From Candidatus Omnitrophota bacterium (GTDB lineage: Bacteria; Omnitrophota; Gorgyraeia; Zapsychrales; Fredricksoniimonadaceae), in contig JBGAJA010000007.1 of NCBI GenBank assembly GCA_044225175.1, forward strand, positions 13,492 through 77,491: 64,000 nucleotides of DNA, written 5' to 3'. The notes under the pieces were generated by a model. It was given only the letters and a program-made list of their open reading frames with translations, was not told the DNA's origin and made no database searches. The position numbers and the translations under genes were made by a program. Below, one piece after another: positions 1-49,689 of the stretch; within the stretch, counting starts at the first letter, position 1, and each line of letters opens with the position of its first letter.

Positions 1-3000
1 CAATTTATTGTGGATACGGGCAATTCAGGATTATCCGTAGAGACGCAAAATTTTGCGTCTTTCCAAAATGAATCCCAAAGATTAATCAAATACTTCCTAG
101 CGGGCCTAACGATTCCAGAGGGAGATCTATGGGTGAATTTAAGCCCCTATGAGAAAGACAGAATCACGCCTACAGCCTTAGGAGAAACCGAGCTAGGACA
201 CGATTTGCTGGCGCAAGACTATATCTTAAAGCAGTTAACTGCATCGCTTATTTATCCAGAGAAAGACTTAGGTAAGGAGTTCTGGAGCCGGGTGTACCAA
301 CAGGCAAAAGAGAAGTTTGGGACAGCAAACGTGCCAGTTAACACCTTTAACAAAGTATGGATATTGCCGGATGAGGCCCAGGTATTTGAGAATAAAGGTG
401 CTGTGTATGTGACGAAATCGACGTTGAAGGTGATGTTGGATGAGGATTACCTGGCGATGAATAAACATAATGTAGGGGTGGGTTCCAAACCCACCCACAT
501 GAGGGCAGGCCTGCCTGATGTAGGGGTGGGTTCCAAACCCACCCACATGAGGGCAGGCCTGCCTGCCGGACAGGCAGGTTTAGAACCTGCCCCTACGGAT
601 TCAAATTATATCGGATCCAAAATCATCCGTGATATCGTCATTCCCGAAATCACCAAAGAAATTAATACGGGAAAGAATTTCGCACCTTTGCGTCAGATCT
701 ATAGTTCTCTTATCTTGGCTAAGTGGTACAAAGAAACCATCCAAAACGGCCTTTTAGACTCAATTTATACGAATAAGAGCAAGATATTAGGAATTAACCT
801 CTCAGACCCCGCTATGAAGCAAAAGATCTATGAACGCTACCTTCAGGCTTATAAGAAGGGGGTATTTAACTACATTAAGGAAGATGAAGCACCTACAGGG
901 CAAAAAACCCCAAGGAAGTATTTCTCAGGTGGGGCAGTTATAGATATTGATCTTAAAAGAACTAACAATAAAGGTATGATCAGTAGTGAAGGTTCGTTGC
1001 TAGCTTTGCAAGTGAGACTCAATTTGCCTAACGCTGCAATGACAGTCTTAGAAGAATTCATGGTATATCCCCAAAGGGCGATGAGTTTTGATGAGTTTGG
1101 GTTGGGATTGCTGGAGGAATTAGAGCAAGGTCATAGGGTACGCGTTCATGTCTTTGCGCCTCACACAATACAAGAATATATTTCTTGGCAGAAGGTTATG
1201 CCATTTGATACTCCTCAACAACGACTAGCCCATCAAATTGTATTAAATCTTTATAAACAACAAAAGATTAAAAGTATTCAGCTAAAAGCTGATGAGATTA
1301 TTTTAACTTTGAAAGAAAGGGTGATGATCAATGATAAGTCATTGGGTGAGATTCATTTGTATTGGCCAGATTCCCAGGAAATTGCAAGGCCGATCAAACA
1401 GAGATTTAAATCTGTCACGGAAATGGATTTGTTATTAGATTCTGAAAAGTTGACTGATTCTGATTTTATTGGTAAGAATTTCACATCACCTAACGCAGCA
1501 ATCCAAAAGTTATTAGCTTTGCTAGGGAATTTTTATGTCTTAGGGATTTATGATTATCAAGTCCAGACAGCGGAAGATCGAAGTGTACTTTTGCAGGAAT
1601 TAACGAACGATCAAGCAGAACGTGAAAAATATGCTCAACTGATTATTGCGGAAGAAGAATATGCTAAAGTAAAGCGTGATCTAGAATTAGCAGAAAAAGA
1701 AGTGCAACAAAAATTAGAACAACTAAGGTTGGTAGCAATAAAAGAAGCGGAAGAGCAAAGAAAAAGCCAAGAAAGACTTATTAAGCAAAGAGCTAGAGAA
1801 AAATTTGAGAAATATTTTAAAAAGATTTCACACTCTACGTATGTTGTTCCTTCCTTTTTGATTCCATTTTTTCAGAAAATGAAAGAAACAAGAGGTTCAA
1901 AATCCATTTATTTAGCATTGGAAGATTACGTGTCTGACGGGAGTATTGTTAGGATGTATCCTGATTTGCAAGGATTTAAAGTGGATTTTTATGATGGAGA
2001 ATTAAAGGATCCTAATGCCAAAGAGGTATTGATGGATTTGTTGGGTTCAATCAATCCTTTAAATGTGATTGATCAAGAGAATTTGTTAAAGAATCCAGAG
2101 AGTTTGTATGATTTCTTAATATCCGCAGCTTGGGAGGAAGAAACAAATGATTTAAGACTAAACGATAAAATTTATTATGATCAGTATGTCTTTGTGGGGC
2201 AGTATTTACATACTATATTTAAAAGAGACAGGGAAGAGATGATTAATAAGTTGTTAAATAGTTATAAAAGCACTGGGGATGAGTTGGATTTAGTAATGAA
2301 ATTATGGGGATTTCCTCATTTTATTCATTCGGAGGATATGGGAATATTTGATCAATTCTTTCAATCTGTATTAACAGAAACTAATATGATTAGTCTGGGT
2401 GGTTTTATTAAATATGCCGATAAGAGTGCGCCGCATAATATAAATATTTTAAAACTTTTAGGGGAGCGTTATCGGGGGTGGGTAGATGAAAGGTATATGA
2501 GTACCTTTTTGTGTATGGTCTTTATGGAACTTCCTAATCAGGTTATAAATCGATTTGAGCTAATGAAGCAAAGAGTTTTTGATTTGTTTTCTATAGAACT
2601 TAAAGTAAATATGGTGAATATTGAATATTACATTAGAGAACGGCAAATAAGAAATGAAAAGACAGTGATAAAATGGCTGGGAGGCGCTGAATCAAAATTA
2701 GAAGTCTTAATGGGGGGTGCTGTGGGAAGGCAGAAACGTCTTGCTGGCTCATCAAAATCTCTCAATCAAGCGATGATTGTGAAGAATAAAGAAGATTTTT
2801 CTACGGGTGCAGATTTAGCAATGGCTAATGAAGGTGGGGTCATTCAATTTGATAGTTTTGACCATTTTGAAGCGGCGGTTAAGAAGGGCGATTTGGATGC
2901 TAAAGCAAGGATTATAGTTGCAAGTTCGGCTGTTTTAGATGCTCTATTAATTGAATTAAGGGAAGCTTTTTCGGATGGAGTGGCTTTTAATATATTGATT

Positions 3001-4026
3001 AATGCGGTGGCCAAGCTTAAGGGTGAAGATCGAAAGGTATTTAAAGATGGGAAGTATGCTTGGGTAGAAGCATATTTTATTACAAAAGGTTTGTTGTCTA
3101 AAGGTCACCCCTCGCCTCTTCCTCGGGGAGGTATTAAGAGTGAGCTGCGTATAATCTTACAGGCCGCTATAGAAGGTTATTATAAAAGTTTGATTGATTT
3201 TAATGAGGCGCCTGAATTTCTTTTAGGTGATCACATTCCACCCTATATTCGGATATTCGGTTGGGCCAAGAGTATTTATACCTATACGCACAGCCCAAAG
3301 ATTAATAAACGGGTGTTTTCTACAAAGAAAGCAGCTACACAATACATAAAAGATTATATGATGAATCAAAAAATTACTGATGAGTCCTTGATTAGGGGAA
3401 TTATCAACATATTGAATCCTTGGAAATCTTTGAATAAGAAAGAAAAGTTATGGTTCTTTACAGAGCCAGAGTTAAAAATCAATCATACAGATAAAGAAAT
3501 TCTAATTGGGCTTATGGAAAAAGAAGTAAGAAAATATGATCCAAGGACCATCGCTAAAGCTTTAGAGATGGGAGATTCCTTGGAAAATCAAGCAGATAAA
3601 GAAGAGATATTAGGTATTATAAAGAATACGATCTTAGAAAAGTTAACGAGTGGTTTTTCTCAGTTCCAAGATGATAAGTTAGATCGAGTTATTGAAGAAA
3701 AAGCTAAGAAAGTTGGGGTGTTTCTACGATTAGAGAAGATTGAAAACGGATATAATCAGGATAGATTTGGTTTTAAATTAGTAGATATGGCTATGATGAA
3801 TAAGTCTCTTAATGCTCCTGGGGGTATTGATCTTAATCCAGTCCATATTCATCGTACGGGAAAAACAATTGCTGTTCAATTCGATCCTGCCCAACTCAAT
3901 GCGCTTATGCAAGGGGGTTTTGAAGGCTTTTCTCCTGTGATCATCAATATAAGACCTATTGAAAGCCCTTTACCATTGCTTGGAGTTGCCTCCCGCAGGG
4001 AAGAATCCGACTTGGCTAAGATCTGA
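1..4026 (+). CDS. Giant hypothetical protein, paralog A (5' end outside window; more than 1338 aa); conserved N- and C-terminal domains shared with the ORF at 45091..49689; central KE-rich coiled-coil
   Basis: Reading frame is open from nt 1, and the ORF track starts at 10 with no upstream stop. Residues 26-300 align with residues ~105-380 of the 45091 ORF (LIKYFLA[GS]LTIPEGDLWVNLSPYEK..., ...RYLQA[YF]KKGV[FY]NYIK). The C-terminal ~70 aa are also shared (GGID...F.PVIINI.P). Confidence 0.8.
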   Translation, partial: QFIVDTGNSGLSVETQNFASFQNESQRLIKYFLAGLTIPEGDLWVNLSPYEKDRITPTALGETELGHDLLAQDYILKQLTASLIYPEKDLGKEFWSRVYQQAKEKFGTANVPVNTFNKVWILPDEAQVFENKGAVYVTKSTLKVMLDEDYLAMNKHNVGVGSKPTHMRAGLPDVGVGSKPTHMRAGLPAGQAGLEPAPTDSNYIGSKIIRDIVIPEITKEINTGKNFAPLRQIYSSLILAKWYKETIQNGLLDSIYTNKSKILGINLSDPAMKQKIYERYLQAYKKGVFNYIKEDEAPTGQKTPRKYFSGGAVIDIDLKRTNNKGMISSEGSLLALQVRLNLPNAAMTVLEEFMVYPQRAMSFDEFGLGLLEELEQGHRVRVHVFAPHTIQEYISWQKVMPFDTPQQRLAHQIVLNLYKQQKIKSIQLKADEIILTLKERVMINDKSLGEIHLYWPDSQEIARPIKQRFKSVTEMDLLLDSEKLTDSDFIGKNFTSPNAAIQKLLALLGNFYVLGIYDYQVQTAEDRSVLLQELTNDQAEREKYAQLIIAEEEYAKVKRDLELAEKEVQQKLEQLRLVAIKEAEEQRKSQERLIKQRAREKFEKYFKKISHSTYVVPSFLIPFFQKMKETRGSKSIYLALEDYVSDGSIVRMYPDLQGFKVDFYDGELKDPNAKEVLMDLLGSINPLNVIDQENLLKNPESLYDFLISAAWEEETNDLRLNDKIYYDQYVFVGQYLHTIFKRDREEMINKLLNSYKSTGDELDLVMKLWGFPHFIHSEDMGIFDQFFQSVLTETNMISLGGFIKYADKSAPHNINILKLLGERYRGWVDERYMSTFLCMVFMELPNQVINRFELMKQRVFDLFSIELKVNMVNIEYYIRERQIRNEKTVIKWLGGAESKLEVLMGGAVGRQKRLAGSSKSLNQAMIVKNKEDFSTGADLAMANEGGVIQFDSFDHFEAAVKKGDLDAKARIIVASSAVLDALLIELREAFSDGVAFNILINAVAKLKGEDRKVFKDGKYAWVEAYFITKGLLSKGHPSPLPRGGIKSELRIILQAAIEGYYKSLIDFNEAPEFLLGDHIPPYIRIFGWAKSIYTYTHSPKINKRVFSTKKAATQYIKDYMMNQKITDESLIRGIINILNPWKSLNKKEKLWFFTEPELKINHTDKEILIGLMEKEVRKYDPRTIAKALEMGDSLENQADKEEILGIIKNTILEKLTSGFSQFQDDKLDRVIEEKAKKVGVFLRLEKIENGYNQDRFGFKLVDMAMMNKSLNAPGGIDLNPVHIHRTGKTIAVQFDPAQLNALMQGGFEGFSPVIINIRPIESPLPLLGVASRREESDLAKI
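472..596. mobile_element. In-frame palindromic (MITE/RPE-like) element inside giant gene A; GTAGGGG...CCCCTAC termini, two perfect hairpins, internal 48-nt tandem duplication (472..519, 520..567)
   Basis: GGGTGGGTT-cca-AACCCACCC gives a 9-bp perfect stem. GGCAGGCCTGCC is a palindrome. The unit gtaggggtgggttccaaacccacccacatgagggcaggcctgcctg occurs twice in tandem. The outer termini gtagggg / cccctac are inverted. It encodes NVGVGSKPTHMRAGLPDVGVGSKPTHMRAGLP... Confidence 0.55.
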
Positions 4027-4038
4027 GAGAAAAATAAA

Positions 4039-4066
4039 TTGACAAATAAAGTCTTTTTGCGATAAT
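4039..4066 (+). promoter_or_regulatory. Sigma70-like promoter upstream of rpsA (TTGACA, 16-nt spacer, GATAAT)
   Basis: ttgaca at 4039-4044 and gataat at 4061-4066, about 70 nt upstream of the rpsA ATG. Confidence 0.4.
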
Positions 4067-4138
4067 GGCCGTCACTTTGAAACCACAGCAGCGCCTGTCT
4101 TCAAAGAATCTAATCAAAAGAAAGAGGATCACAAGAAC

Positions 4139-5692
4139 ATGAGTACTACAACAACACCAAAATCAGTTATGGAGGAGCTCTACGAGAGCACCTTAAAAGA
4201 TATAAAGGAAGGAGAAATCATCAAGGGCACAGTTGCCGCGGTGAATGCGAAAGAAGTTATCGTCGACATCGGGTTTAAATCTGAAGGATTTGTGCCTATT
4301 GAAGAGTTTCGCAACTTAGCAGATTTTGCCGTAGGTAGTCAAATCGAAGTTCTCATTGAGAACATTGAAGATGATAACGGTCGCTTAATCCTTTCTTACG
4401 GAAAAGCTGAACGCCTCAAAGGTTGGCAGAAAATTTCCGATGATATTAACGAAGGCGATATTGTTGACGGTCGCGTTGTTCGCGCAGTCAAAGGTGGATA
4501 TATCGTCGATGTATTTGGCATTGAAGCATTCCTACCAATGTCACTTTCCGCATTTAAAGGCATTTCCAACAACGATATTACAGTTAAGAATTTCAAATTC
4601 GTCGTAGCTAAAATGAATAAGCAAAGACGCAATTTGATTCTTTCACGCCGTGAGATGGTTCAAAAAGAACGCGAAGAAGTTCGTGAAAAGCTTTGGGGCG
4701 ATCTTAAAAAAGGTCAAAAACGCAAAGGAACTGTTAAGGGTATTACAGATTTCGGTGCGTTTATTGATTTAGGCGGGGTTGATGGTCTTCTTCATATCAC
4801 AGATATGAGCTGGAGCCGTATCAATCATCCTTCTGAAATTGTATCTGTTGGGCAAAAGATCGAAGTGTTGATCCTTGATTTCGATCAAGCCAACGCTAAG
4901 GTGTCTTTAGGTCTTAAGCAAATTGTAGCTAATCCTTGGGATGAAGCTGCTGCCAAGTTCCCTGCTGGAGCTAGAATTAAGGGAAAGATTGTTAATATTA
5001 TGCCATATGGTGTGTTTGTTGAAATCGATCGTGGCATTGAAGGTTTATTACACGCTTCTGAGATTTCTTGGCAAAAGAAGATTGTTAATCCTCAAGAAAT
5101 GTTCAAATTAGGCGATGTTCTTGATGTTCAGATCATCAACGTGGATAAAGATGCAAAACGTATCTCCTTAAGTATGAAACAGTTAGAAGAAAATCCTTGG
5201 GGGAATGCAGCTGCTAAGTTCAATGTTGGCGATAAGATCAAGGGTGTTGTTCGTGGATTTACCGATTATGGAGCTTTCATTGAATTAGAAAGCGGGTTAG
5301 AAGGTATGATCCATGTTTCTGATATGTCTTGGACCAAAAAAGTCAATCATCCTCAAGAAGTTCTTCAAAAAGGACAATCTTTGGATGTGGTTGTTCAGGC
5401 AGTGGATGCTGAGAATCGTAAGATTACTTTAGGTCTTAAGCAATTAGAATCTAATCCTTGGAATGAAATTGCTCAGAAGTTTCCAGTTGGTTCTGAAGTA
5501 GCCTCCGAAGTTGTGATGAACTCAAACTTTGGTGTGTTTGTTAAATTAGAAGGTGATATCGAAGCTTTGGTATACTCCTCTGAAATTGATAAACAACAAG
5601 CTGCGTCATTGAAACCAGGTGATAAGCTTCAAGTTAAGATTATTAAAGTTGACGTCGAAGGCATGAAAATCGGCGTTTCAGCTAAATTGTAA
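4139..5692 (+). CDS. rpsA: 30S ribosomal protein S1
   Basis: 517 aa with repeated S1 domains (GDIVDGRVV..., GQKRKGTVKGITDFGAFIDLG..., HASEISW..., HVSDMSW...). Confidence 0.85.
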   Translation: MSTTTTPKSVMEELYESTLKDIKEGEIIKGTVAAVNAKEVIVDIGFKSEGFVPIEEFRNLADFAVGSQIEVLIENIEDDNGRLILSYGKAERLKGWQKISDDINEGDIVDGRVVRAVKGGYIVDVFGIEAFLPMSLSAFKGISNNDITVKNFKFVVAKMNKQRRNLILSRREMVQKEREEVREKLWGDLKKGQKRKGTVKGITDFGAFIDLGGVDGLLHITDMSWSRINHPSEIVSVGQKIEVLILDFDQANAKVSLGLKQIVANPWDEAAAKFPAGARIKGKIVNIMPYGVFVEIDRGIEGLLHASEISWQKKIVNPQEMFKLGDVLDVQIINVDKDAKRISLSMKQLEENPWGNAAAKFNVGDKIKGVVRGFTDYGAFIELESGLEGMIHVSDMSWTKKVNHPQEVLQKGQSLDVVVQAVDAENRKITLGLKQLESNPWNEIAQKFPVGSEVASEVVMNSNFGVFVKLEGDIEALVYSSEIDKQQAASLKPGDKLQVKIIKVDVEGMKIGVSAKL

Positions 5693-5703
5693 TTAAGTTT
5701 ATA

Positions 5704-5755
5704 GGGGTAGGACATAAGGAATACCCGTTGTTCCTTATCTCTTACCCCTTATCTT
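5704..5755 (+). terminator. Hairpin terminator after rpsA
   Basis: ggggtagga...ataaggaa-tacccgttg-ttccttat...tcttacccc is a nested imperfect stem, followed by a T-rich ttatcttttt. Confidence 0.4.
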
Positions 5756-5765
5756 TTTATCCCTT

Positions 5766-6914
5766 ATGTCATCCCAAGACGCTATTCAAAAAATCTCCCG
5801 TGGCACAACCGAAATCATCTCCCAAGAAGATTTAGCTAAGAAATTAGCCCTTAAACGTCCATTAGTGATTAAAGCTGGTTTTGATCCAACTGCACCCGAT
5901 ATTCACCTAGGGCATGTGGTTTTATTGAAGAAAATGCGTCAATTTCAGGATTTGGGACATAGGGTGGTCTTTTTAATCGGAGATTTTACAGCCCAGGTAG
6001 GGGATCCAACAGGCCGTAATGAGCTTCGTAAGAAGATGACGCTCGAAGATATTGAACAAAACGCTAAAACCTATAAAGTGCAAGTGTTTAAGGTCTTAGA
6101 TCCACAAAAAACAGAGGTCGTTTTCAATAGTCATTGGCTTAGTAAGCTAACTCCTCAAGATTTATTAGAACTCTCCGCAAGGTCTACGGTAGCTCAGATG
6201 CTAGCCCGTGCAGATTTCAAGAAACGTTTTGAATCAGGTCGTGAAATAAGCCTTTTAGAGTTTATTTATCCCTTATTGCAGGGCTACGATTCAGTCCATT
6301 TGAAGGCAGATGTGGAATTAGGGGGTAATGACCAAAAGTTTAACTTGCTAATGGGGCGTCAATTACAAGAAAGCTATTCACAAACCCCTCAAGTAGTTGT
6401 CATGACTCCATTGCTTGAAGGCACCGATGGTGTTCAAAAGATGAGCAAGTCACTAAATAACTATATTGGGATTAATGAGAGTGCGAATGATATCTTTGGT
6501 AAGGTGATGTCAATCAGCGATGTTCTGATGCTTCGCTATTATGAACTTTTAACTGATGTAGATTTAGAGTCAATCAAGCAAATGCATCCTAAAGATGCTA
6601 AGATGCAATTAGCTCAAATGATTGTTGAGATGTTTCATCCAACAGGTGAAGGACTAAAGGCTCGTTCTTATTTTCAAGAAACATTTAGTCAGCACCAAAC
6701 GCCACAAGATATTCCAGAAATTAAATTCTCACAAGAACAAAAATTATTGGATTTGCTCATCTTAGAGAAAATAATTGCTTCCAAAAATGAAGGTCGTCGT
6801 TTGCTTAAAGAGGGGGCTGTTTCTCACGATGGTTTTGTTATATCCGACGAGAATTGGCCTTTAAAATCAGGCGTCATTAAAGTGGGAAAGCGTCGTTTTT
6901 TAAGATTATTGTAA
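5766..6914 (+). CDS. tyrS: Tyrosyl-tRNA synthetase (type with KMSKS and C-terminal S4-like domain)
   Basis: HIGH motif (HLGH), FLIGDFTAQVGDPTGR, KMSKS, C-terminal S4-like RNA-binding domain. Confidence 0.75.
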   Translation: MSSQDAIQKISRGTTEIISQEDLAKKLALKRPLVIKAGFDPTAPDIHLGHVVLLKKMRQFQDLGHRVVFLIGDFTAQVGDPTGRNELRKKMTLEDIEQNAKTYKVQVFKVLDPQKTEVVFNSHWLSKLTPQDLLELSARSTVAQMLARADFKKRFESGREISLLEFIYPLLQGYDSVHLKADVELGGNDQKFNLLMGRQLQESYSQTPQVVVMTPLLEGTDGVQKMSKSLNNYIGINESANDIFGKVMSISDVLMLRYYELLTDVDLESIKQMHPKDAKMQLAQMIVEMFHPTGEGLKARSYFQETFSQHQTPQDIPEIKFSQEQKLLDLLILEKIIASKNEGRRLLKEGAVSHDGFVISDENWPLKSGVIKVGKRRFLRLL

Positions 6915-8650: not shown

Positions 8651-9335
8651 TATGTCAAGAATAAGTAAAAGAATGAAAGAAGTAAATCGTATCGTAGAAG
8701 GAGTGGTAAATCCAATTTCCTTAAATGAAGCTATTTCTTATTTGTCTAAGTCTCCTAAAGTCAAATTTGATGAGACTGTTGAAATGCATTTTAATTTAAA
8801 TGTAGATATGAAATCTTCAGATCAAGGTGTTCGTGGAACTGTCGTACTACCACACGGTAGTGGTAAAACTGTAAAGGTCGCTGTGTTCTGTAAAGGGGAT
8901 GCAATTGCTAAGGCAGAAGCTGCTGGTGCTGATTATGTGGGCAGTAATGACTTAATTGATAAAGTTTTTGGTGGTTTTATGGATTTTGATGTTGTCGTTG
9001 CAACTCCTGATATGATGCGTGATATCAGCAAGTTAGGTAAGGTTTTAGGTCCTCGTGGTCTTATGCCAACACCTAAGGCCGGAACCGTTACAACGGACGT
9101 CGAACGTACGATTAAAGAAGTTAAAGCTGGTCGTGTAGAATTTAAATCTGATAAACAAGGCGGAATACATCTTGGTATCGGAAAAAGATCTTTCGATCAA
9201 GCAAAGTTAATTGAAAACGCTCAGCAAGTCATTGAAGCTATCAATCATGCTAAGCCATCAACTGTTAAAGGTAACTTGATTAAAAGTTTGTCTGTGGCAA
9301 CCACTATGGGCCCAGGAGTGAAGGTGGTCATATGA
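8651..9335 (+). CDS. rplA: 50S ribosomal protein L1 (start taken at the ATG at 8651; the ORF track's 8631 start overlaps rplK)
   Basis: L1 family sequence in the rplK-rplA-rplJ-rplL context. Confidence 0.9.
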
Positions 9336-41717: not shown

Positions 41718-41719
41718 GT

Positions 41720-42844
41720 ATGACGCATTTCAAGCCTAAGCGTGTCCTTCTGCTATATATCTCCCAGGTTTCAGGTCATCGACATGGTGCAGTAGCCATA
41801 TCAAAGGCCCTCAAAGAGCTTAATCCTGACTGTGAAATTAAAAGTCTGAATGGATTTGGCTATACCTATCCCTTAATGGAGAAAATTATCAATACCGCAT
41901 ATATGGGGGTAATTAAACGTGCTCCTCAGATTTGGGAGTATCTTTATGATAATCCTAAGGTCATTAAAGCTTCACAGAAAATCAAAGAAAAGATCCATAA
42001 ATCTTCCCATAAGAAATTCAAACCACTTTTTGATGAATTTAAACCCGATGTCGTCGTTTGCACTCAAGCCTTTCCATGCGGCATGGTTGCAGATTTTAAG
42101 AACGAAAATAAGCTTCCTGTCAAAGTTGTCGGTGTTCTTACAGATTTTGCTCCCCATATGTATTGGCTTCATGATGGAGTAGACTATTATGTGGTTCCTT
42201 TTGAAGATGCGAAAAAAAGATACATGGACGAAGGAATTGAAGCAGATCAAATTAAAGTCTTTGGAATTCCTATCCGTACGAAATTTTCAGAAAAAGGAGA
42301 TGTACAGACAATTGCCCGTAAATTGCATTTAGATGTACAAATTCCTACTGTTCTTGTTATGGGTGGGGGACAAGGTTTGGGCCCCATGAAGGAAGCTGTC
42401 AAATCTTTGGTAGCATTAAATCGACCTTTGCAGATCATTGTGATTGCAGGAACTAATACAAAACTTTTGGCTTGGATTAAAAAGATCCAGCGTAAAACCT
42501 CTAAAAAAATCATCGCTTATGATTATGCCAATAATGTCGATGAATTAATGGAAGTTTCAACATTGATTATTACAAAGCCAGGAGGTATGACAACCTCTGA
42601 ATGCCTAGCTAAAGGGTTACCGATGGTTGTCATTGATCCAATTCCTGGACAAGAAGAACGTAACTGTGATTTTTTGGTTAAAAGTGGCATTGCTGTACGC
42701 GTATACAATAAAAAGGAAATTGCGCATTGCGTTGAAATGCTTTTGAATGACCCTGCTAAACTTCAGTCTATGAAGGAGTCTGCTTTAAAGTTTGCTCGTC
42801 CTAATGCGGCCCAAGACATTGCACGGTTGGTGCTCAGTGGGTAA
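41720..42844 (+). CDS. Glycosyltransferase, MGDG-synthase/UgtP-like (GT28 family)
   Basis: N-terminal KRVLLLYISQVSGHRHGAVAISKAL resembles the MGDG-synthase/UgtP motif (G-G-H in a Rossmann N-domain); C-terminal GT-B domain. Confidence 0.6.
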   Translation: MTHFKPKRVLLLYISQVSGHRHGAVAISKALKELNPDCEIKSLNGFGYTYPLMEKIINTAYMGVIKRAPQIWEYLYDNPKVIKASQKIKEKIHKSSHKKFKPLFDEFKPDVVVCTQAFPCGMVADFKNENKLPVKVVGVLTDFAPHMYWLHDGVDYYVVPFEDAKKRYMDEGIEADQIKVFGIPIRTKFSEKGDVQTIARKLHLDVQIPTVLVMGGGQGLGPMKEAVKSLVALNRPLQIIVIAGTNTKLLAWIKKIQRKTSKKIIAYDYANNVDELMEVSTLIITKPGGMTTSECLAKGLPMVVIDPIPGQEERNCDFLVKSGIAVRVYNKKEIAHCVEMLLNDPAKLQSMKESALKFARPNAAQDIARLVLSG

Positions 42845-43703
42845 TTATTATCTATATCAAATTGCAGCATTTATTACTCGATTTTTACCGTTGAAGGCGA
42901 GTTATGCGTTAGGTGTTTTTCTCTCCGACTGTCAGTATCTTCTTTCTAAAGCAGACAGACAAGCTGTGCGGGACAATCTTAGTATTATCCTCAAAACTCA
43001 ACAAGTACCTTCTGCCAAGGTTCGTGAAGTGTTTCATAATTTCGGAAAGTATTTGGTAGATTTCTTTACGATGACCCAGAGAGTGGACCAAGAATTTATT
43101 AAAAAATATGTGCAAATCTCTGGTGCGGAATATTTTAATGAAGCTCGTTCTCATGGAAAAGGAGGGATTTTAATAAGCGCCCACCTAGGGAATTGGGAAA
43201 TGCCGGCGGGAGTTATTAAGTATTTGGGTTATCCATTATCTGTAATTGCTTTGTCCCATCGGGATCAAAGAGTCAATGCTTTCTTTAATAAACAAAGAGA
43301 ATTCTTTGGAATCAAAGTCATTCAAACTAATGTTGCTGTTCGTCGATGCGTGGAACATCTTAAAGAGAATCGTTTGGTTGCTATTTTGGCAGATAGAGAT
43401 TTTGGGAATCATGGGATACCTATGGATTTTTTAGGAAGAAAAGCTTTAATTCCAAAGGGGGCCGCCCTTTTTTCTATTAAAACGGGAGCGCCGGTTATTC
43501 CAACGTTTTTTTTAAGAACTCCACAGGATGGTTTTAAATTTATTATCGGAAAACCTATTTATCCCTTTGTAGTATCTAAGGAGCATAAAATTACTGACAA
43601 GGATTTAGAGAGTTTTATTGAGCAATACCTTAAGAAAATTGATGAGCAAATTCAACAAAATCCGACACAGTGGTTAATATTTCGACGTTTTAATATTGTA
43701 TGA
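42837..43703 (+). CDS. Lipid A biosynthesis acyltransferase, LpxL/HtrB-like (start uncertain: GTG at 42837 or TTG at 42891)
   Basis: Motif SAHLGNWEM; length about 290 aa. Confidence 0.65.
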   Translation: MGNYYLYQIAAFITRFLPLKASYALGVFLSDCQYLLSKADRQAVRDNLSIILKTQQVPSAKVREVFHNFGKYLVDFFTMTQRVDQEFIKKYVQISGAEYFNEARSHGKGGILISAHLGNWEMPAGVIKYLGYPLSVIALSHRDQRVNAFFNKQREFFGIKVIQTNVAVRRCVEHLKENRLVAILADRDFGNHGIPMDFLGRKALIPKGAALFSIKTGAPVIPTFFLRTPQDGFKFIIGKPIYPFVVSKEHKITDKDLESFIEQYLKKIDEQIQQNPTQWLIFRRFNIV

Positions 43704-44365
43704 AAACAGCCATTCTTATTCCGGCGCATAATGAAGCTAAAGCCATTGGTTCTTTAGTCAAATCTCTTGTGGATCTTAGGTTTGATGTGATTGTTGTGGA
43801 TGATGGCTCTGTAGATGATACAGGTCTTTTAGCTAAGACGCAGGGTGCTATTGTTCTATCAACTCACAAAAAAAGTGGTAAGGGAAATGCTCTTCGTTTG
43901 GGCTTTGATTACGCAATTGTTCAGAACTATGATGCTCTTATCATGATGGATGGAGATGGACAGCATTCACCCTCAGATATTGCTTATTTTTTGGAATGTT
44001 ATGATAAAAGTCGCGTGGATATCGTTAATGGGAACCGTATGCTAAATCCTCGAGGAATGCCGTGGTTAAGGCGTGTGACCAATCATTTTATGTCAGCATT
44101 GATCTCTATGATCTGTCATCAAAGAATTGCAGATACTCAATGCGGTTTTCGATTTGTTACAACAAAAGTGCTTAAAGCGATTGAGCTTCAAAGCACTGAT
44201 TATGAAATTGAGACTGAGATTCTTATCAAGGCTAGTCGTAAAGGTTTCCGAATTGCGTCTGTACCCATTGAAAGTATTTATGGGGATGAAGTAAGTAAAA
44301 TCAATCCTTTGAAAGATACAGTTAGATTTATTCGTTATATCCTTAAAGAAATGTTTCGATCATGA
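43700..44365 (+). CDS. Family 2 glycosyltransferase (Dpm1/ArnC-like polyprenyl-phosphate glycosyltransferase)
   Basis: ILIPAHNEA...VVDDGSVDDT and the DGD.Q acceptor motif of GT2. Confidence 0.7.
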   Translation: MKTAILIPAHNEAKAIGSLVKSLVDLRFDVIVVDDGSVDDTGLLAKTQGAIVLSTHKKSGKGNALRLGFDYAIVQNYDALIMMDGDGQHSPSDIAYFLECYDKSRVDIVNGNRMLNPRGMPWLRRVTNHFMSALISMICHQRIADTQCGFRFVTTKVLKAIELQSTDYEIETEILIKASRKGFRIASVPIESIYGDEVSKINPLKDTVRFIRYILKEMFRS

Positions 44366-45015
44366 CAGCTAATAATTTCTTATATAAGGCCTTGTTTGTT
44401 TCGTTGACCATACATACTATTTTTGTTTGTAGCAGCTATTGGATGAAAATGCCTGATATTAAAAAAGTGAGAGATAAAAGAGTTGAAATTACGTATAAGC
44501 CTATAGCTCCTAAAACATTGGATATCCGTCAGCATGCCATTAAGCCGGCTCAAAAGTTAGATCTGCAAAATTCTATGGTTTCTAGTGATACAATTGGGGT
44601 TAAATTAACTAAAGAATCAGAAAGTTTAAAAGGGCTTACTGATTTTGAGCGTAAACCTAATCAAATTAAATCTGATCCTGCCAATTATGTGACAGTCACT
44701 CCTATCAGCTCAGAAAAGATTAATAGTCCTATTTATACGTCGTACCAAGATCGCATCCGTGAAAGCATTAAAGAAAGGGTGTATGCTAATTACAGCAAGC
44801 TAGATAAAGGAACGGTTTATTTGACCTTTATTATTTCTTCTGATGGGAGTTTAAAAGATTATCAGATTATTTCTGAAAAAAGCAATGCCAGCCAGAATTT
44901 GCGCTACATTTCTACTAAAAGCCTCAAAGAAGCCAGATTTCCACCATTTCTCAAAGGTATGAGTCTTCCTGAATATACCTTTAATATTGAAATTGAATAT
45001 CAATTAAGCGAGTAA
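44362..45015 (+). CDS. TonB-like C-terminal-domain membrane protein
   Basis: N-terminal TM helix; the C-terminal pattern GTVYLTFIISSDGSLKDYQII..S....L...A...L....FPP resembles the TonB C-terminal domain. Confidence 0.45.
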   Translation: MTANNFLYKALFVSLTIHTIFVCSSYWMKMPDIKKVRDKRVEITYKPIAPKTLDIRQHAIKPAQKLDLQNSMVSSDTIGVKLTKESESLKGLTDFERKPNQIKSDPANYVTVTPISSEKINSPIYTSYQDRIRESIKERVYANYSKLDKGTVYLTFIISSDGSLKDYQIISEKSNASQNLRYISTKSLKEARFPPFLKGMSLPEYTFNIEIEYQLSE

Positions 45016-45090
45016 GCGCTTTCTCAGAGTCGCCTTTAAGCCCTTGAAATAAGGTTTTTCTATGGCATATTTATATAAAGGTATATAGAT

Positions 45091-48000
45091 ATGCTAAGAA
45101 CCCCATTGATCACAATTATTTTAGTGAGCTTTATCGTCACAGGAACTATAGGCCCTATGCCTGTGAATGCTCAGGAAATACGTTTGCCTAAGCCTGGGGT
45201 AATGGTCCATTTAAGTCCCCCTATAAATCCTTCCATGTTAAAGGGAATTAAAGTTAATCCAGATAATCCGTTTCGGTTTGAATTCGTGCTGGACACCGGT
45301 GATGAAAATGTCAACCGTAGGGGTTTGATTCATCAAACCCAAGCAGAGGGCATGATGAATCATGCCCCTACGGATTTCAAATCTGAATCCGTGAAATTAA
45401 TCAAATATTTCCTAGCCTCATTAACTATACCGGAGGGTGACCTATGGGTAAACCTAAGCCCCTATGAAAAGAACCGTATGGTTCCTGAGAGCTTTGGGCA
45501 GACAGAGATGGGACGTGATCTACTAGCCCAGGACTATATGCTCAAACAGATCACCGCGAGTCTTATCTATCCAGAAGATGAGGTAGGAAAAAGATTCTGG
45601 AAGAGGATCTATGAGGAGTCAGCCAAGAAATATGGCACAACCAATATCCCAGTCAACACATTCAACAAGGTCTGGATAGTTCCTGAGAAGGCAGTTATTT
45701 ATGAGAATGCAAAGGCAGGAACGGCCTATGTGGTGGAATCCAGGTTGAAGGTGATGTTGGAATGTGATTATTTGGCGATGGATAAAAATATCGTAGGGGC
45801 GACCCACCGTGGTCGCCCTTTACCAGGGCAGGCACAGGGGCCTGCCCCTACGGAAACAAATAACATCGGATCCCAAATCATCCGCGAAATCGTCATCTCC
45901 GAATTAACCAAAGAGATTAACTATGGCGCGAACTTCGCCCAGCTTAGACAAGTCTATAGTTCCTTGATTCTAGCCACATGGTACAAAAAGAAGATCAAAG
46001 ATTCGATTCTTTCCCAAGTCTATGCAGATAAAAACAAGATTGAAGGAATCAAATACGCAATGCCAACCAGGGGACATGCTCTTAACCAAAACAACAAGAG
46101 CGTGTCCCCAAGCAGTTTGCTAAGCAATAAAGCCTTGGATGTGAAAGCGACCCAGATGAACGAACCAAACGATGTTGAATCTATCTACCAACGCTACCTG
46201 CAAGCCTTCAAAAAAGGCGTCTACAACTACATCAAACAAGACATTGACCCGGCGACACAACAGGCTGTGCCCAGGAAATATTTCTCTGGCGGTATGGCTT
46301 TAGCCATGAATGTCACTAATTTAGGATCAACAGAATTACGAACAGTCGATAGGATGGATTTTGCTCAAATAAACCAAGATAACTTGAGAATTATCTCCAG
46401 TGAATTTACTTCTGTTAATTCAGTCTTGTCTAATCAGGCGATGAAGGCAGGAGAATCAAGTGCTGTGTCCCCAGATCCCCTGAAAACTCCTGCGCGGTCT
46501 TCATTTGTGATCGAAGATTCTCCTGATTTCAAACAGCGGTATTTGGGTGCTGCGAATAATCATGATCGAATAGCTTTATTAAAAGAAGAGTATGGATTAA
46601 GGGATGTTGAAATCGAAGTTTCAAGCATTAGGGGGGGATTTGGAGTCACTAGGGGTACTGGTTTATTGCAGAAAGCGGGTGACCATAAATATACATTAAC
46701 TTTATATGGGGTTGAGGGTGATTATGAGGCTTATTTATTATTTCATGAATTTATGCATGCATATTTTGAAGAAAAAGGTCTTCGATTTAATTGGGACTCT
46801 CAAGGTGCGGAAGCAGATAATTTTATTTTTCAAATAAAGAATATGCTTTTGGATTATATGATCGAGCAGGAGAATAAGCGCAGATTTGAAGATCAATTTC
46901 AAGACATCACTCAAGATATGCGTGACTATAATTTAAGAGGTGTTTTAAAGGATAGAGCCATATTTCCTTCTTCCTTAATTGTCTTAGCTTTGAACGGAAA
47001 ATTAGTCACAAATCTTTATCCAGCTCTATCAGCATGTTATTCGCAGTCTTTTATTGGCAAAATTGTAAAAATCCCTTATTACGATGAGCTGGTAAAAGAA
47101 TTTGATAAACTGTCAGTTTCAAGTTCTGTTTCTGATTGGCAAAATGGATTTATGAATGTTTACAAAATAATGGTTGATTCTGATGTGAAGATGCAAGCTA
47201 ATAAGTTAGTAGTGAATATTCAGAAATTGAAAAAAGTGATAATGAATATAAATGGTAATTTAGAAATGCTTATTCAAACGGTCCAACGGACAATGGCCGA
47301 ACAAATAAAGCCTGAACAACAAACCATGCCCGATCAGATATGGGATGCTTTAGTATCAGAATTAGACAACTCCAAATGGCCGGATGATTTTAGAATCATA
47401 TTAAAATATCATCTGGACGCTCAGAAAAGAAAACTAAATGTTAAAAGTCTTTTTGATACTTTGCGTAAATTTCATATCGGGCCTACCGTAAACATCATAT
47501 ACATGTTAAATGGCATCTTTGAGAATGCGAATTTGAGCGTGAGAATTTATAATGATGAGCAGAGGAAGATTCAAAAAGTTAATGATGATTATGGTTTCTT
47601 AGAGAATCTAGATTTTGCAATGCTTGAGACAATAGAGGGCAGCGCCCAATTATTTAAGAAATCTGATCAAGCAATGAAGGCAGAAGAATTAAGTGCTGTG
47701 TCCCCAGATTTGCAGAATATATTTGGTAAACCCGTGAATGAAGATTTACCTGAAGAGATTGCTAATTTACCAGCAGATCAGTCTTCTACACGAGGGACTT
47801 TAACCAAGAGGCCATTCGGTGAGAAGACTATTGAACAAGAAAGGTTAGAATTAGAAATGTTGGTGGGTGTTGAATCTCTTGAACCGCAGGTTGCATGGGC
47901 TGTGCAAATGTTAACGATTAAGGGGTATGGTAGTAAATCTTCAGGGTTTTATTATGAGCATCCTAGTCAAATTCACGGTGGCACTATGGAGAGACACAGT

Positions 48001-49689
48001 ATTGAAGGTTTTTCAAGATCATTGTCTCCGGAAGAAATAAGGATTATTGAATCTGTCCCTGGGGCTAAATATGATGTCTCTAAAAATGGAATATTTGTTG
48101 ATTCTAAAGGTAAAACACTAAAAGAAGTCAAAGCTGTTTTTGATGAAATTGCTAGAAGACTTCCTGATCATGGAGCGCAAAATAGAGAGCAATTTTTGAT
48201 GTTTCAACAGGTGTTGGGTGCTCCAAATCGGCATTTTATAATAAAAATAAACGCAACTGATGGGTATCAGGATAGAGAGATATATGTCAACCGATTTGTA
48301 CGTCATTTAAAGAAGTTTAAACTCACAATGACAACAGATGTTATTTCATTATGGGAGACTATTATTGGTCAGCAAGAAGGTGCATCGCAAATCGAAGTTG
48401 TTCAAGGTGTATTTAAGGACGCAATTGTTAATGGAAAAGCATTGGTGATTGCGGGAGATAGTCTTAAGAGATTTGATTTTTCAATTCAAGACTTAATTAA
48501 ATCAGTACTTAGTCAGCAAGGAGAGACAGTAGCATTTAACCATGAAACTTTAAAGGTGCATCCTGGATTTCGTTTGGTATTTCTACTAGATGACTCTTTA
48601 GCTAAGAAGTTAATGGAAGAGCTAGAAAGAAGCTTTCTTCAATTTAACTATCCTGTAACCTCTCAGAAAGTGGACAGTGCTTTGCCTGCCGAACATAGAA
48701 ATGGAACAGATAATCTAGTCTTAGAATTTGAAAGAGAGCTTACTGAAGCATGGAGAGCGATCCCATTATTTTACGATACGGAGTTTACAGACAATCAACC
48801 ATGGATTATGGATCATAGAACGTTGTGGGATGATGTATTAAAAGTAGCATCTAAGCATCAGTTATTAGCTCATGGCACATTGAATAGTTATTATCAATCC
48901 AATGGCATTGGGATTTCACCTCTTAATCTTCACTGGGCCATGTTGGGTATTATGCTTGAAGGTAGTGTTCGTTTTGGTGAATTGGGAAATTTCTCTTCCA
49001 ATATTGGAATAGATGATATGTACAAAAATGCTGCTCGTTTTGGCCCCTACTATGTTCTTTTTCGTCCAGGTAGTGGAGTTCCAGGTGAAAAACAATTTAA
49101 GTTTCGAGAACATCCTTCTAAAGAAGAGGATCATTTAATCTATCTTGTACCAGAAGAGAACGCACGGAAATTCTTTGAATTGGGTCTGATTAAAGCAAAG
49201 GAGCGAGGTTTTATTACTCCTGCGCAAGAACAGATAGTTCGTTCTAAGATTTTAACGTATGCTGAATTTGTAGCGAGTGACAGTCAGATAGAGGACATAA
49301 TTAGAGGAAGAGTTCCAGCGCGACGGACGGGAAATGACGCTCAGACAGCAAAGGACACGGATAGAGTGATGAAGACAGAAGAATTAAGTGCTGTGTCCCC
49401 AGATTATAAACATATTGCTTTGGGGACGGTTGTACCTCCGGGAGATGCTGCAATGAGGGTAGGAAAGGCTTTGACGAATAAAGGTGGTATCGACTTTACC
49501 GCCACCAAAACACCTTTGGAAGTTCATAACGCAGGAGAGGGTATAAAGTTCCAGCTGGATCCAGCTATGTTGCAGCAGCTCCAAAATGCCCCAGGCTTTG
49601 TGCCAGTCATTATTAATATTGAACCCATGATCAATCTGCGGGAATTTTTGGGTATTAATCAGCAACAAACTACCTCTATTTCTGCATAA
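45091..49689 (+). CDS. Giant hypothetical secreted protein, paralog B (1532 aa): signal peptide, shared N-terminal ~300-aa domain, three modules delimited by an identical repeat, HExxH motif, shared C-terminal ~70-aa domain
   Basis: N-terminus MLRTPLITIILVSFIVTGTIGPMPVNAQE looks like a Sec signal peptide; homology to the 1..4026 ORF at both ends; HEFMH at 46744..46758. Confidence 0.85.
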   Translation: MLRTPLITIILVSFIVTGTIGPMPVNAQEIRLPKPGVMVHLSPPINPSMLKGIKVNPDNPFRFEFVLDTGDENVNRRGLIHQTQAEGMMNHAPTDFKSESVKLIKYFLASLTIPEGDLWVNLSPYEKNRMVPESFGQTEMGRDLLAQDYMLKQITASLIYPEDEVGKRFWKRIYEESAKKYGTTNIPVNTFNKVWIVPEKAVIYENAKAGTAYVVESRLKVMLECDYLAMDKNIVGATHRGRPLPGQAQGPAPTETNNIGSQIIREIVISELTKEINYGANFAQLRQVYSSLILATWYKKKIKDSILSQVYADKNKIEGIKYAMPTRGHALNQNNKSVSPSSLLSNKALDVKATQMNEPNDVESIYQRYLQAFKKGVYNYIKQDIDPATQQAVPRKYFSGGMALAMNVTNLGSTELRTVDRMDFAQINQDNLRIISSEFTSVNSVLSNQAMKAGESSAVSPDPLKTPARSSFVIEDSPDFKQRYLGAANNHDRIALLKEEYGLRDVEIEVSSIRGGFGVTRGTGLLQKAGDHKYTLTLYGVEGDYEAYLLFHEFMHAYFEEKGLRFNWDSQGAEADNFIFQIKNMLLDYMIEQENKRRFEDQFQDITQDMRDYNLRGVLKDRAIFPSSLIVLALNGKLVTNLYPALSACYSQSFIGKIVKIPYYDELVKEFDKLSVSSSVSDWQNGFMNVYKIMVDSDVKMQANKLVVNIQKLKKVIMNINGNLEMLIQTVQRTMAEQIKPEQQTMPDQIWDALVSELDNSKWPDDFRIILKYHLDAQKRKLNVKSLFDTLRKFHIGPTVNIIYMLNGIFENANLSVRIYNDEQRKIQKVNDDYGFLENLDFAMLETIEGSAQLFKKSDQAMKAEELSAVSPDLQNIFGKPVNEDLPEEIANLPADQSSTRGTLTKRPFGEKTIEQERLELEMLVGVESLEPQVAWAVQMLTIKGYGSKSSGFYYEHPSQIHGGTMERHSIEGFSRSLSPEEIRIIESVPGAKYDVSKNGIFVDSKGKTLKEVKAVFDEIARRLPDHGAQNREQFLMFQQVLGAPNRHFIIKINATDGYQDREIYVNRFVRHLKKFKLTMTTDVISLWETIIGQQEGASQIEVVQGVFKDAIVNGKALVIAGDSLKRFDFSIQDLIKSVLSQQGETVAFNHETLKVHPGFRLVFLLDDSLAKKLMEELERSFLQFNYPVTSQKVDSALPAEHRNGTDNLVLEFERELTEAWRAIPLFYDTEFTDNQPWIMDHRTLWDDVLKVASKHQLLAHGTLNSYYQSNGIGISPLNLHWAMLGIMLEGSVRFGELGNFSSNIGIDDMYKNAARFGPYYVLFRPGSGVPGEKQFKFREHPSKEEDHLIYLVPEENARKFFELGLIKAKERGFITPAQEQIVRSKILTYAEFVASDSQIEDIIRGRVPARRTGNDAQTAKDTDRVMKTEELSAVSPDYKHIALGTVVPPGDAAMRVGKALTNKGGIDFTATKTPLEVHNAGEGIKFQLDPAMLQQLQNAPGFVPVIINIEPMINLREFLGINQQQTTSISA
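45317..45371. mobile_element. In-frame palindromic element, copy B1, in giant gene B (GTAGGGG...CCCCTAC with two perfect hairpins)
   Basis: gggtttga-ttca-tcaaaccc and gggcatgat-ga-atcatgccc are flanked by gtagggg / cccctac, then ggatttcaaat. Confidence 0.5.
45793..45851. mobile_element. In-frame palindromic element, copy B2, in giant gene B at the position homologous to 472..596 in gene A
   Basis: gtaggggcgacc-cac-cgtggtcgccc, ...gggcaggcacaggggcctgcccctac; termini GTAGGGGC / GCCCCTAC. Confidence 0.5.
46441..46475 (+). repeat. Intragenic repeat copy 1 (encodes MKAGESSAVSPD)
   Basis: atgaaggcaggagaatcaagtgctgtgtccccagat. Confidence 0.8.
47674..47708 (+). repeat. Intragenic repeat copy 2 (encodes MKAEELSAVSPD)
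   Basis: atgaaggcagaagaattaagtgctgtgtccccagat. Confidence 0.8.
49369..49403 (+). repeat. Intragenic repeat copy 3 (encodes MKTEELSAVSPD)
   Basis: atgaagacagaagaattaagtgctgtgtccccagat. Confidence 0.8.

Follow-up and report, generated by a model that had tools for sequence, protein, structure and literature searches.

A very large Omnitrophota protein family with a signal peptide, two conserved terminal domains and exchanged modules between them

Introduction

What kind of protein keeps both of its ends and replaces everything in between? The question is raised by two large open reading frames (ORFs), A and B, in a 64,000-nucleotide stretch of a Candidatus Omnitrophota genome (assembly GCA_044225175.1, contig JBGAJA010000007.1, positions 13,492 to 77,491 of the forward strand), which as a whole we call the window. 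An earlier note, made from the letters of this DNA, described A and B as a pair of giant secreted paralogs with common ends and divergent centres, likened them to polymorphic effector or adhesin families, and pointed to their position on either side of the ribosomal superoperon. Omnitrophota are widespread, uncultured and ultra-small bacteria that are regarded as predators or parasites, and attention has so far gone to their giant proteins. We are highly confident that A and B are members of a very large, Omnitrophota-restricted family with a fixed architecture. What this architecture does is a more tentative matter, and we give a probability of about 0.45 to the statement as a whole, mechanism included, that it is a Sec-exported frame carrying interchangeable cargo.

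Results

Common ends, unrelated middles and a large family

The reading frame of A is open from the first base of the window and closes with a stop codon at 4024-4026; a further 66 codons lie beyond the window edge, and the full protein (P0219, 1407 amino acids, aa) is encoded on the same 97,420-bp NCBI contig as B (45091..49689, 1532 aa, P0001). BLASTP aligns the two proteins over an N-terminal block (A aa 1-318, B aa 64-408; 180/367 identical, 49%, E 4e-98) and a C-terminal block (A aa 1262-1336, B aa 1452-1529; 31/80 identical, 39%, E 2e-9), and beyond these two end blocks no alignment is better than E 14. The shared ends are whole domains, aligned over 367 and 80 columns, and not a single motif, which bears out the earlier description of common termini around unrelated middles. 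At the DNA level the identity between A and B is only 73-79%, over stretches of no more than 160 nt, and because of this low similarity recombination between the two genes seems unlikely. No third copy of either domain was found by tblastn in the whole window, and the middles of A and B match only themselves.

A and B turn out to be two of thousands of members, not an isolated pair. An HMMER scan with B aa 25-405 against 1.84 billion representatives of 50%-identity clusters found the N-domain in 7,953 clusters, 5,874 of them with E<=1e-30; the match starts within the first ~120 residues in all clusters, and within residues 1-60 in most of the 150 listed. Protein searches returned more than 4,200 significant matches for B and more than 4,200 for A. 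The matches of B are confined to its first 26-33%, with 53-67% identity, and every named one comes from metagenome-assembled genomes (MAGs) of Candidatus Omnitrophota/Omnitrophica. When one genome per prokaryotic species was scanned, at least 590 N-domain loci came up, and the taxonomy of the family rests on the best 80 of these plus the source names: the 80 loci fall in 30 assemblies, with up to 9 per assembly, and all are Omnitrophota, some titled 'uncultured Planctomycetales'. Among 2.9 million viral contigs, three carry the N-domain. These three, IMG/VR contigs classed as viral (L081-L083), hold a divergent member with 48-49% identity to the N-domain of B, and could be misclassified host DNA or prophage-flanking regions.

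The architecture is universal in the family and restricted to this lineage. All of the best 120 matches of B carry the N-domain right behind a hydrophobic N-terminus and the C-domain inside the last 110 residues or fewer, and both domains are present in 195 of 218 proteins, the rest being mostly short fragments. At the level of loci, the C-domain shares an ORF with the N-domain in 48 of 53 cases; in the other 5 another ORF at that locus carries it. In 4 of these the gene is interrupted, and in 1 the C-domain comes from an adjacent family gene of which only the 3' end falls within the locus. The interruptions are in-frame stops (L011 at ~4691, TAA; L035 at ~7383, TAA; L073 at ~2448, TGA) and a frameshift (L019, ~8870-8898), and such members may reflect decay and turnover of paralogs, or sequencing errors. 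What the earlier note had seen in two proteins, conserved ends around a variable cargo, is thus an invariant rule of a large lineage-specific family. Its word 'giant' is relative: with members ranging from ~690 to more than 3,400 aa, A and B, at 1.4-1.5 thousand amino acids (kaa; 1407 and 1532 aa), are mid-sized in the family.

Read from the N-terminus, a member consists of a signal peptide, the N-domain, one to several cargo modules of ~250-550 aa, each preceded by a short junction motif ([DN]xAM), and, behind a final junction, the C-domain. The parts of A and B are as follows, all on the + strand:

1..4026, ORF A, A-subtype member, 5' end cut by the window edge (full length P0219)
1..933, N-domain of A, window aa 1-311, ending PRKYFSGG (BLASTP against B; N-domain matches of 59-64% identity in other MAGs)
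1030..1041, junction NAAM of A (aa 344-347), after the N-domain (motif scan)
1042..2763, cargo module 1 of A, aa 348-921, including a KE-rich coiled-coil-like stretch
2764..2823, double junction of A, NQAM (aa 922-925) and DLAM (aa 938-941) (motif scan)
2824..3783, cargo module 2 of A, aa 942-1261, orphan
3784..4026, junction DMAM and C-domain of A (window aa 1262-1341; GGIDL ... FDPAQL ... GFSPVIINIRP), then stop
45091..49689, ORF B, B-subtype member, 1532 aa (P0001)
45091..45171, Sec-type signal peptide of B, aa 1-27, MLRTPLITIILVSFIVTGTIGPMPVNA/QE (the slash marks the cleavage site, inferred from the AxA pattern of the family)
45172..46293, N-domain of B, aa 28-401, LPKPGVMVHLSP ... PRKYFSGG
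46423..46477, linker 1 of B with junction NQAM (aa 448-451, nt 46432-46443); copy 1 of a 55-nt repeat
46444..47664, cargo module 1 of B, aa 452-858, with HEFMH at aa 552-556 (nt 46744-46758)
47611..47622, extra junction motif DFAM of B
47656..47710, linker 2 of B with junction DQAM (aa 859-862, nt 47665-47676); copy 2 of the 55-nt repeat
47677..49359, cargo module 2 of B, aa 863-1423, no known family
49351..49405, linker 3 of B with variant junction DRVM (aa 1424-1427); copy 3 of the 55-nt repeat
49444..49689, junction DAAM and C-domain of B, aa 1452-1532 (GGIDF ... IKFQLDPAMLQQLQNAPGFVPVIINIEP ... FLG), then stop

Two subtypes with coupled ends

The N-domain of A is 49% identical to that of B, yet 48-64% (mostly 55-64%) identical to those of different proteins in other MAGs, and the A-like relatives are rich in ankyrin, HEAT and metabolic cargo. 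When each of 265 proteins is assigned to a subtype by its N-domain and, separately, by its C-domain, the two assignments agree in 86 + 175 proteins and disagree in 2 + 2 (Pearson 0.95). Both subtypes are found on the same contigs. This concordance, together with the co-occurrence, indicates two ancient paralogous lineages in which the ends were kept together while the middle was replaced, and it is to these two old subtypes that the supposed pair belongs. We also looked at coupling between individual residues of two short motifs that resemble each other, GIKVHPDNPF in the N-domain and GIKFHLDPAML in the C-domain; it is strong overall and vanishes within the B-subtype (p 0.14), and we therefore claim coupling of the ends at the subtype level only.

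The signal peptide and the terminal domains

A hydrophobic N-terminal stretch is present in 299 of the 304 members examined, in agreement with the Sec signal peptide proposed earlier for B, and a basic n-region in 285 of the 304. Alanine is favoured at -3 and -1, ahead of Q-E/D-F-x-LPxPG, which is the standard signal peptidase I pattern. Full-length A begins with a signal peptide of its own, MDNIFKRLLVAILCLNFLFGNADLSFSA/SS. No obvious internal hydrophobic segment is seen in A or B, two proteins in which transmembrane (TM) segments were not scored.

The N-domain had been placed from about residue 105 of B; it starts instead straight after the signal peptide (LPxPGVMVxLSP...), and spans ~375 aa in B, three variable loops included, and ~350 aa in the family, with the motifs LPxPGVMVxLSP ... 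WVNLSPYEK ... SLILATWYKKK ... PRKYFSGG. Dozens of its columns are invariant, for example in WVNLSPYEK, NTFNKVW, SLILATWYK and KYFSGG, and no His or Cys is among the invariant residues. The C-domain is shorter, ~70-80 aa at the extreme C-terminus, with the consensus GGIDLT..NMNLQTQN.G..IKFHLDPAMLQQLQNAPGFVPVIINIQP...L..FLG and the motif GGID ... [IV]xF/VxxDPA[MQ]L ... GF.PVIINIxP ... FLG. The DPA[MQ]L at the core of this motif also conforms to the pattern DxA[MQ].

The earlier note had recognised neither end as a named family, and neither matches one here, with Pfam, NCBIfam, PHROGs, PADLOC, the PDB sequences and three fold libraries all negative. A and B gave only sub-threshold chance matches in Pfam (E<=1), NCBIfam, PHROGs and PADLOC, and the N-domain profile had no match in a PDB sequence search. 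Foldseek against PDB and BFVD returned nothing at E<=0.001 for the N-domain, from a query model with a pLDDT of only 63.5; in this AlphaFold model the domain is predicted to be mixed alpha/beta and not a beta-helix. A model of P0211, a full-length member of only 694 aa, is too poor (pLDDT 54.6) to judge docking between the N- and C-domains, and its C-domain, modelled with low confidence, has one short helix and is otherwise coil. The C-domain may fold only on a partner. No description of the terminal domains or of the DxAM motif was found in the literature searched, whose coverage was incomplete. The two large domains are apparently new and merit Pfam or InterPro family definitions. For now, cargo or chance matches have given members wrong annotations such as 'ribosomal protein L21E', 'glycosyl hydrolase' or 'protein kinase'; in JGI data the spurious L21E names probably stem from a sub-threshold match of the L21e Pfam model to YNYIK...PRKYFSGG.

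A junction motif between the modules

The middles are punctuated by the motif [DN]xAM, which occurs 16-18 times more often than expected (B-type proteins, 852 against 53; A-type proteins, 500 against 30). Among 4-mers in the middles, enrichment is highest for DQAM (89-fold) and DRAM (81-fold), and DSAQL is enriched as well (85-fold). A and B together have 10 occurrences where 0.6 are expected. NAAM, NQAM, DLAM and DMAM are the junctions of A, and NQAM, DFAM, DQAM, the variant DRVM and DAAM those of B. Outside the family the motif is not enriched, with 1 against 2.3 in 45 other window proteins and 18 against 18.7 in the non-family ORFs of related loci. In about half of the members it lies 0-10 aa past PRKYFSGG, in about half 5-15 aa ahead of GGID, and between the ends it recurs every ~300-550 aa.

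All four third bases are used in the alanine codon of the motif, the flanking nucleotides are uninformative, and a Shine-Dalgarno-like sequence precedes the motif Met in 11% of cases, against 9% for other internal Met codons. The motif is therefore selected at the protein level. On the same observations we rejected two other roles, those of an internal translation start and of a DNA recombination signal.

In B, the inter-module linkers (..QAMKAEELSAVSPD..) are three copies of one 55-nt DNA repeat, 78-84% identical and present nowhere else in the window, which suggests duplication or exchange of modules by recombination at the linkers inside gene B. In other members, partial starts of a C-domain are seen between modules (P0003 aa ~735-755 and P0034 aa ~1450-1480; GGIDF.., ..IDLTPANMN..), followed by DSAQL and DxAM. 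Because such partial copies occur between modules, the linkers may be degenerate C-domain remnants.

Modules that move between members and resemble whole genes

The modules are shuffled between members of the family. Module 1 of B is 46% identical to aa 1861-2242 of another member (P0002), where it stands immediately before the C-domain, part of module 2 of B (aa 1227-1403) resembles aa 553-730 of P0003, and homologs of module 1 of A occur at other positions in P0327 (once) and P0302 (three times). Local BLAST with the middle of B found shared modules in P0002, P0003 and L080 only, and a word-indexed search for its homologs returned B alone. The HExxH module noted earlier in B is present, as HEFMH at aa 552-556; searches of Pfam and the PDB sequences failed to assign it to a family, and in the same searches all four cargo modules of A and B match no known family.

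For the family, a list of cargo was drawn from precomputed Pfam matches and source names; for some entries, including part of M23, M28, M48 and GH26, the accessions are ones that we take to bear these names. The recognisable cargo comprises protein kinases, ABC1, HATPase_c, response regulators and GGDEF; SNF2 helicase, MutS and many methyltransferases; GNAT, NUDIX and HAD; guanylate and uridine kinase, NDK, hexokinase, PFK, PGI, GDH and PPDK_N; M23, M28 and M48 peptidases with glycosyl hydrolases; and repeats of the ankyrin, HEAT, WD40 and TPR kinds.

What follows the motif Met gives the modules the look of captured whole genes. Stretches resembling a signal peptide or TM segment occupy the 45 aa beyond an internal DxAM in 5.2% of cases, compared with 1.6% for other internal Met residues (odds ratio 3.3, p 1.6e-7), and Tat-like (twin-arginine) signals number 6 against 1. 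The examples include Sec sites (...PNIVNAQS), lipoboxes (...LSGCYT) and twin-arginine signals (SRRDFL, TRRNFL), and in P0059 the guanylate kinase Pfam model begins 14 aa beyond the junction Met.

These observations bear on an explanation in which the proteins are a polyprotein device of the producing cell, cut at DxA/M in the cytoplasm or during translation, with modules released with their native Met that stay in the cytoplasm or leave by their own Sec or Tat signals, and with terminal domains that serve processing or regulation. Whole-gene-like modules begin at the motif Met, some of them with functional-looking Sec, Tat or lipoprotein signals; the kinase domain of P0059 starts 14 aa past this Met; central-metabolism enzymes are among the cargo; and conserved partner genes are lacking, all of which would be in keeping with such a device. 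The family-wide signal peptide, however, would route the nascent chain to Sec before the downstream modules are made, the N-domain has neither a protease fold nor a conserved catalytic His or Cys, internal translation starts are without evidence, and the constant need for a conserved C-domain would be left unexplained. We consider this explanation quite improbable.

The nature of the cargo also bears on a second explanation, in which the N-domains (and C-domains) of the paralogs would co-assemble as one lattice or filament at the surface or in the periplasm and, instead of delivering the modules, display them as an 'enzymatic coat' that acts when prey is contacted. The N-domain is 54-78% identical from one MAG to another, next to unrelated middles, which fits a mutual assembly constraint, and the signal peptide, the many copies per genome and the glycosidase and peptidase cargo (M23, M28, M48, GH26), which would function outside the cell, point the same way. 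Most of the recognisable cargo, on the other hand (kinases, GGDEF, SNF2 helicase, MutS, methyltransferases, NDK), needs ATP, GTP, S-adenosylmethionine (SAM), NAD or DNA/RNA and would be idle outside a cytoplasm, and the internal Tat and lipoprotein signals are not explained by display. A coat of this kind seems to us an unlikely answer.

A proposed Sec-exported frame for interchangeable cargo

The reading that we favour is that of an exported frame. The chain would be exported via Sec, and a conserved envelope or translocation structure would recognise its invariant N- and C-domains or incorporate them. The modules would be cargo (enzymes using ATP, SAM or NAD, peptidases, glycosidases, and ankyrin, HEAT and WD40 repeats) destined for the cell surface or for an attached prey or host cell, and the DxAM junctions would be proteolytic processing sites, each module being freed with a Met at its N-terminus. 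Taken from sequence patterns as it is, this combination of export, delivery and processing falls somewhat short of even odds. That the ends serve trafficking or anchoring, and that the proteins are effectors or adhesins, as the earlier note suggested, likewise stays an inference.

This reading is favoured because a universal signal peptide is combined with cargo that depends on cytoplasmic cofactors and with 'host-interaction' repeats. It is further supported by the internal Tat and lipoprotein signals, which can work only after release in a cytoplasm. The biology of the phylum adds to this, since Omnitrophota are described as ultra-small and host-dependent or predatory (PMC10066038), and their giant proteins, mostly with signal peptides and with many of the domain families seen in the cargo here (HEAT, HATPase_c, NUDIX, GGDEF, HAD), have been read as extracellular effectors (10.1101/2023.11.21.568195; 10.64898/2026.06.07.730766), a prey-directed reading. 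Predator RNA has been observed inside dead prey cells (PMC13153191).

Several observations weigh against the exported frame. The terminal domains match no known secretion, anchoring or translocation domain, and AlphaFold gives a model of only moderate quality for the N-domain (pLDDT 63.5) and a poor one for the C-domain. In 80 related loci, genes for secretion systems, proteases or immunity proteins do not occur as conserved neighbours. Some cargo consists of housekeeping metabolic enzymes (hexokinase, PFK, PGI, NDK, GDH) that could serve the producer. Internal Tat signals are senseless in an unfolded Sec-exported chain unless it is processed in a cytoplasm, and we know of no protease of DxA/M specificity.

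The exported frame can be taken further, to a new delivery pathway of a predatory or episymbiotic phylum, in which Sec-exported polyprotein effectors would cross the outer membrane of the predator into the prey and be cut there at DxA/M, yielding complete enzymes and repeat proteins. Some of the freed modules might then use the Sec or Tat machinery of the prey, which would explain the internal Tat and lipoprotein signals, and the pool of cargo might be renewed by in-frame capture of whole genes. This extended version, all three parts together, we regard as doubtful.

Genomic setting and neighbours

With a GC content of ~38%, the window has 48 ORFs that reach 150 aa, every one of them on the + strand, and ~13% of its length belongs to the family genes. 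The GC skew is positive over the whole window (1-64000), like the + orientation of all 48 ORFs, which suggests extreme gene co-orientation along one replichore. The rpoBC-S10-spc-alpha ribosomal region is situated between A and B, so that the bracketing of the superoperon reported earlier is correct as to position. Its significance is another matter: no neighbour recurs in more than 5 of the 80 related loci, and the bracketing is therefore most likely incidental. Given the many copies per genome, finding two of them within 64 kb is nothing unusual. According to a 2026 preprint (10.64898/2026.06.07.730766), read-based 'hypervariable region' calls in Omnitrophota genomes repeatedly include ribosomal-protein operons.

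A and B have housekeeping genes around them (S1, TyrRS, lipid A acyltransferase, glycosyltransferases, M24 peptidase, EF-P, biotin carboxylase). Ribosomal protein S1 lies downstream of A, and downstream of B the next ORF of at least 150 aa, ~0.7 kb away, is the M24 peptidase. The lipid A acyltransferase gene in the window indicates a diderm envelope.

This setting bears on the likeness to polymorphic toxins that the earlier note had drawn. A classical polymorphic toxin system, used in competition between bacteria and accompanied by cognate immunity genes, would share with the family a conserved N-terminus with hypervariable downstream parts, a junction motif reminiscent of VENN or DPxGL, and multiple paralogs per genome, and one member has an RHS repeat (PF05593). 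The classical tests nevertheless failed: the variable part is internal and the extreme C-terminus conserved, no small downstream gene recurs, no recurrent immunity-like neighbour and no known trafficking domain is found, and the cargo consists mostly of enzymes and repeat proteins not known as toxins. We judge a toxin system of this type to be very unlikely.

Palindromic inserts and promoters

Three in-frame inserts with GTAGGGG...CCCCTAC ends are present in the window, and no others, all of them in N-domain loops of A and B; they are given here with the promoter-like site of B, again on the + strand:

472..596, GC-rich palindromic insert GTAGGGG...CCCCTAC in N-domain loop 2 of A (fold z -4.6)
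45044..45071, promoter-like site of B, TTGAAA, 16 nt, TG-CATATT, 20 nt 5' of the ATG
45317..45371, palindromic insert in N-domain loop 1 of B (fold z -8.1)
45793..45851, palindromic insert in N-domain loop 2 of B (fold z -4.6)

Each insert consists of two hairpins of differing sequence and is translated as VG...APT[DE], and the folding of the inserts surpasses that of shuffled controls by a wide margin (z -4.6 to -8.1). The insert of A contains a perfect 48-nt tandem duplication (470-517 and 518-565) encoding VGVGSKPTHMRAGLPD twice, and because the duplication is perfect it points to a very recent local expansion. In homologs from other MAGs, these loops and one loop of the C-domain hold different hairpin-type inserts (for example VIPAKAGIH and SPSLVKEGDRGSL; in P0020 SRFRGNDREGGGND). 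Compared by description, the inserts resemble Rickettsia palindromic elements in being short palindromic, hairpin-forming DNA placed in frame in surface loops of conserved proteins; at 55-125 nt those found here are the shorter ones, and they are GC-rich and have GTAGGGG/CCCCTAC at their ends.

With repeats of this kind in the genes, the similarity between members might be supposed to arise from mobile or repetitive DNA, or from artefacts of assembly. The in-frame palindromes in the N-domain loops, the 55-nt linker repeats of B and the few members with in-frame stops or a frameshift could be cited for it. Against it, conservation is at the protein level, with dozens of invariant residues where the DNA of A and B is 73-79% identical over at most 160 nt, the ORFs are intact in their thousands in independent assemblies and sources, and the palindromes are limited to loops. 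In our view the pattern of protein-level conservation refutes this explanation.

No Shine-Dalgarno-like sequence precedes B. In a survey of the upstream regions of family genes (L001-L083) and of 45 other window genes, a Shine-Dalgarno-like sequence was rarer for the family (4/70 against 20/45), and a -10-like hexamer, [CT]ATA[CT]T, ending 4-11 nt 5' of the ATG, was found in 25/67 family genes against 1/45 others, often with TG and a CTTG[AT] -35-like box in front. These figures are hints of leaderless or very short-leader mRNAs, with individual promoters that are similar to each other and a possible co-regulation.

Discussion

Why the family matters

The family is far more numerous than the giant proteins of Omnitrophota and follows a simple, fixed grammar of signal peptide, N-domain, DxAM-delimited modules and C-domain. 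This grammar makes two things testable, a machinery that recognises the invariant ends and the cleavage of the junctions, and it makes the family a ready list of activities that may be directed at prey. Should the frame be a new signal for export or translocation, it would represent a new principle of secretion and a potential tool for protein delivery; if it is instead a polyprotein device, it would be an unusual strategy of bacterial gene expression.

Comparison with known systems

The family fails the defining tests of MARTX toxins, of cargo of the type IX secretion system (T9SS) and of polymorphic toxins, and is homologous neither to these nor to any other known system.

Polymorphic toxins (CDI/CdiA, Rhs, MafB) combine a conserved trafficking part with recombining cassettes behind a boundary motif such as VENN or DPxGL (PMC3482391). 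They are the nearest analogs for one combination of traits, namely exchange of cassettes and a short boundary motif, and they too have several paralogs per genome. They differ in that the toxin domain forms the extreme C-terminus, whereas here the variable part is internal and the C-terminus conserved, and in that the cargo here is largely ordinary enzymes and repeat proteins. No cognate immunity gene was found by A and B and no neighbour recurs in more than 5 of 80 loci, a comparison in which module-specific small genes were not examined exhaustively, and no trafficking domain (TPS, LXG, PAAR, RHS core) had a Pfam or NCBIfam match at E<=1 in A or B.

T9SS cargo is the nearest for another combination, that of a Sec signal peptide, variable domains and a C-terminal sorting domain of ~70-100 aa. 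The NCBIfam models of the T9SS C-terminal domain (TIGR04183, TIGR04131) are, however, unmatched, the C-domain here is not confidently predicted as a beta-sandwich, T9SS cargo has no conserved 350-aa N-domain, and the system belongs to the Bacteroidota group. Type V secretion relies on a C-terminal barrel of at least 250 aa, or on TPS, whereas the C-domain has ~70-80 aa, there is no Autotransporter or Haemagg_act Pfam match, and the N-domain is not predicted as a beta-helix. RTX adhesins of the LapA kind have an N-terminal retention module without a Sec signal, carry RTX repeats and leave by the type I secretion system (T1SS); the family has a Sec signal peptide and no HemolysinCabind/RTX match.

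The giant proteins of Omnitrophota, of at least 10,000 aa, tile unrelated enzyme domains, usually have many TM helices, are often flanked by genes for type II secretion (T2SS), type IV pili (T4P) or Tad, and are largely unique in sequence (10.1101/2023.11.21.568195; 10.64898/2026.06.07.730766). Compared by description, the family differs from them in its size (0.7-3.4 kaa), in usually having no internal TM segments, in its fixed N/C frame and junction motif, and in its lack of conserved neighbours, and it shares with them a repertoire of cargo (HEAT, HATPase_c, methyltransferase, GNAT, HAD, NUDIX, GGDEF, hexokinase).

MARTX proteins are large secreted toxins of Vibrio and relatives, in which conserved ends surround a mosaic of interchangeable effectors that varies between strains. 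Their modules are freed by cleavage at the linkers between them, and the ends are thought to carry the cargo across the target membrane. The RtxA glycine-rich repeats, the C80 cysteine protease and the RTX/T1SS signal of MARTX have no Pfam or NCBIfam match in A or B. MARTX toxins use type I secretion with rtxBDE/tolC genes nearby, whereas this family has a Sec signal peptide and housekeeping neighbours; their junction is Leu-X where here it is DxAM, and unlike MARTX the family has many dispersed paralogs per genome and no rtx operon. Though not homologous to it, the family is, by analogy of layout, closest in design to MARTX.

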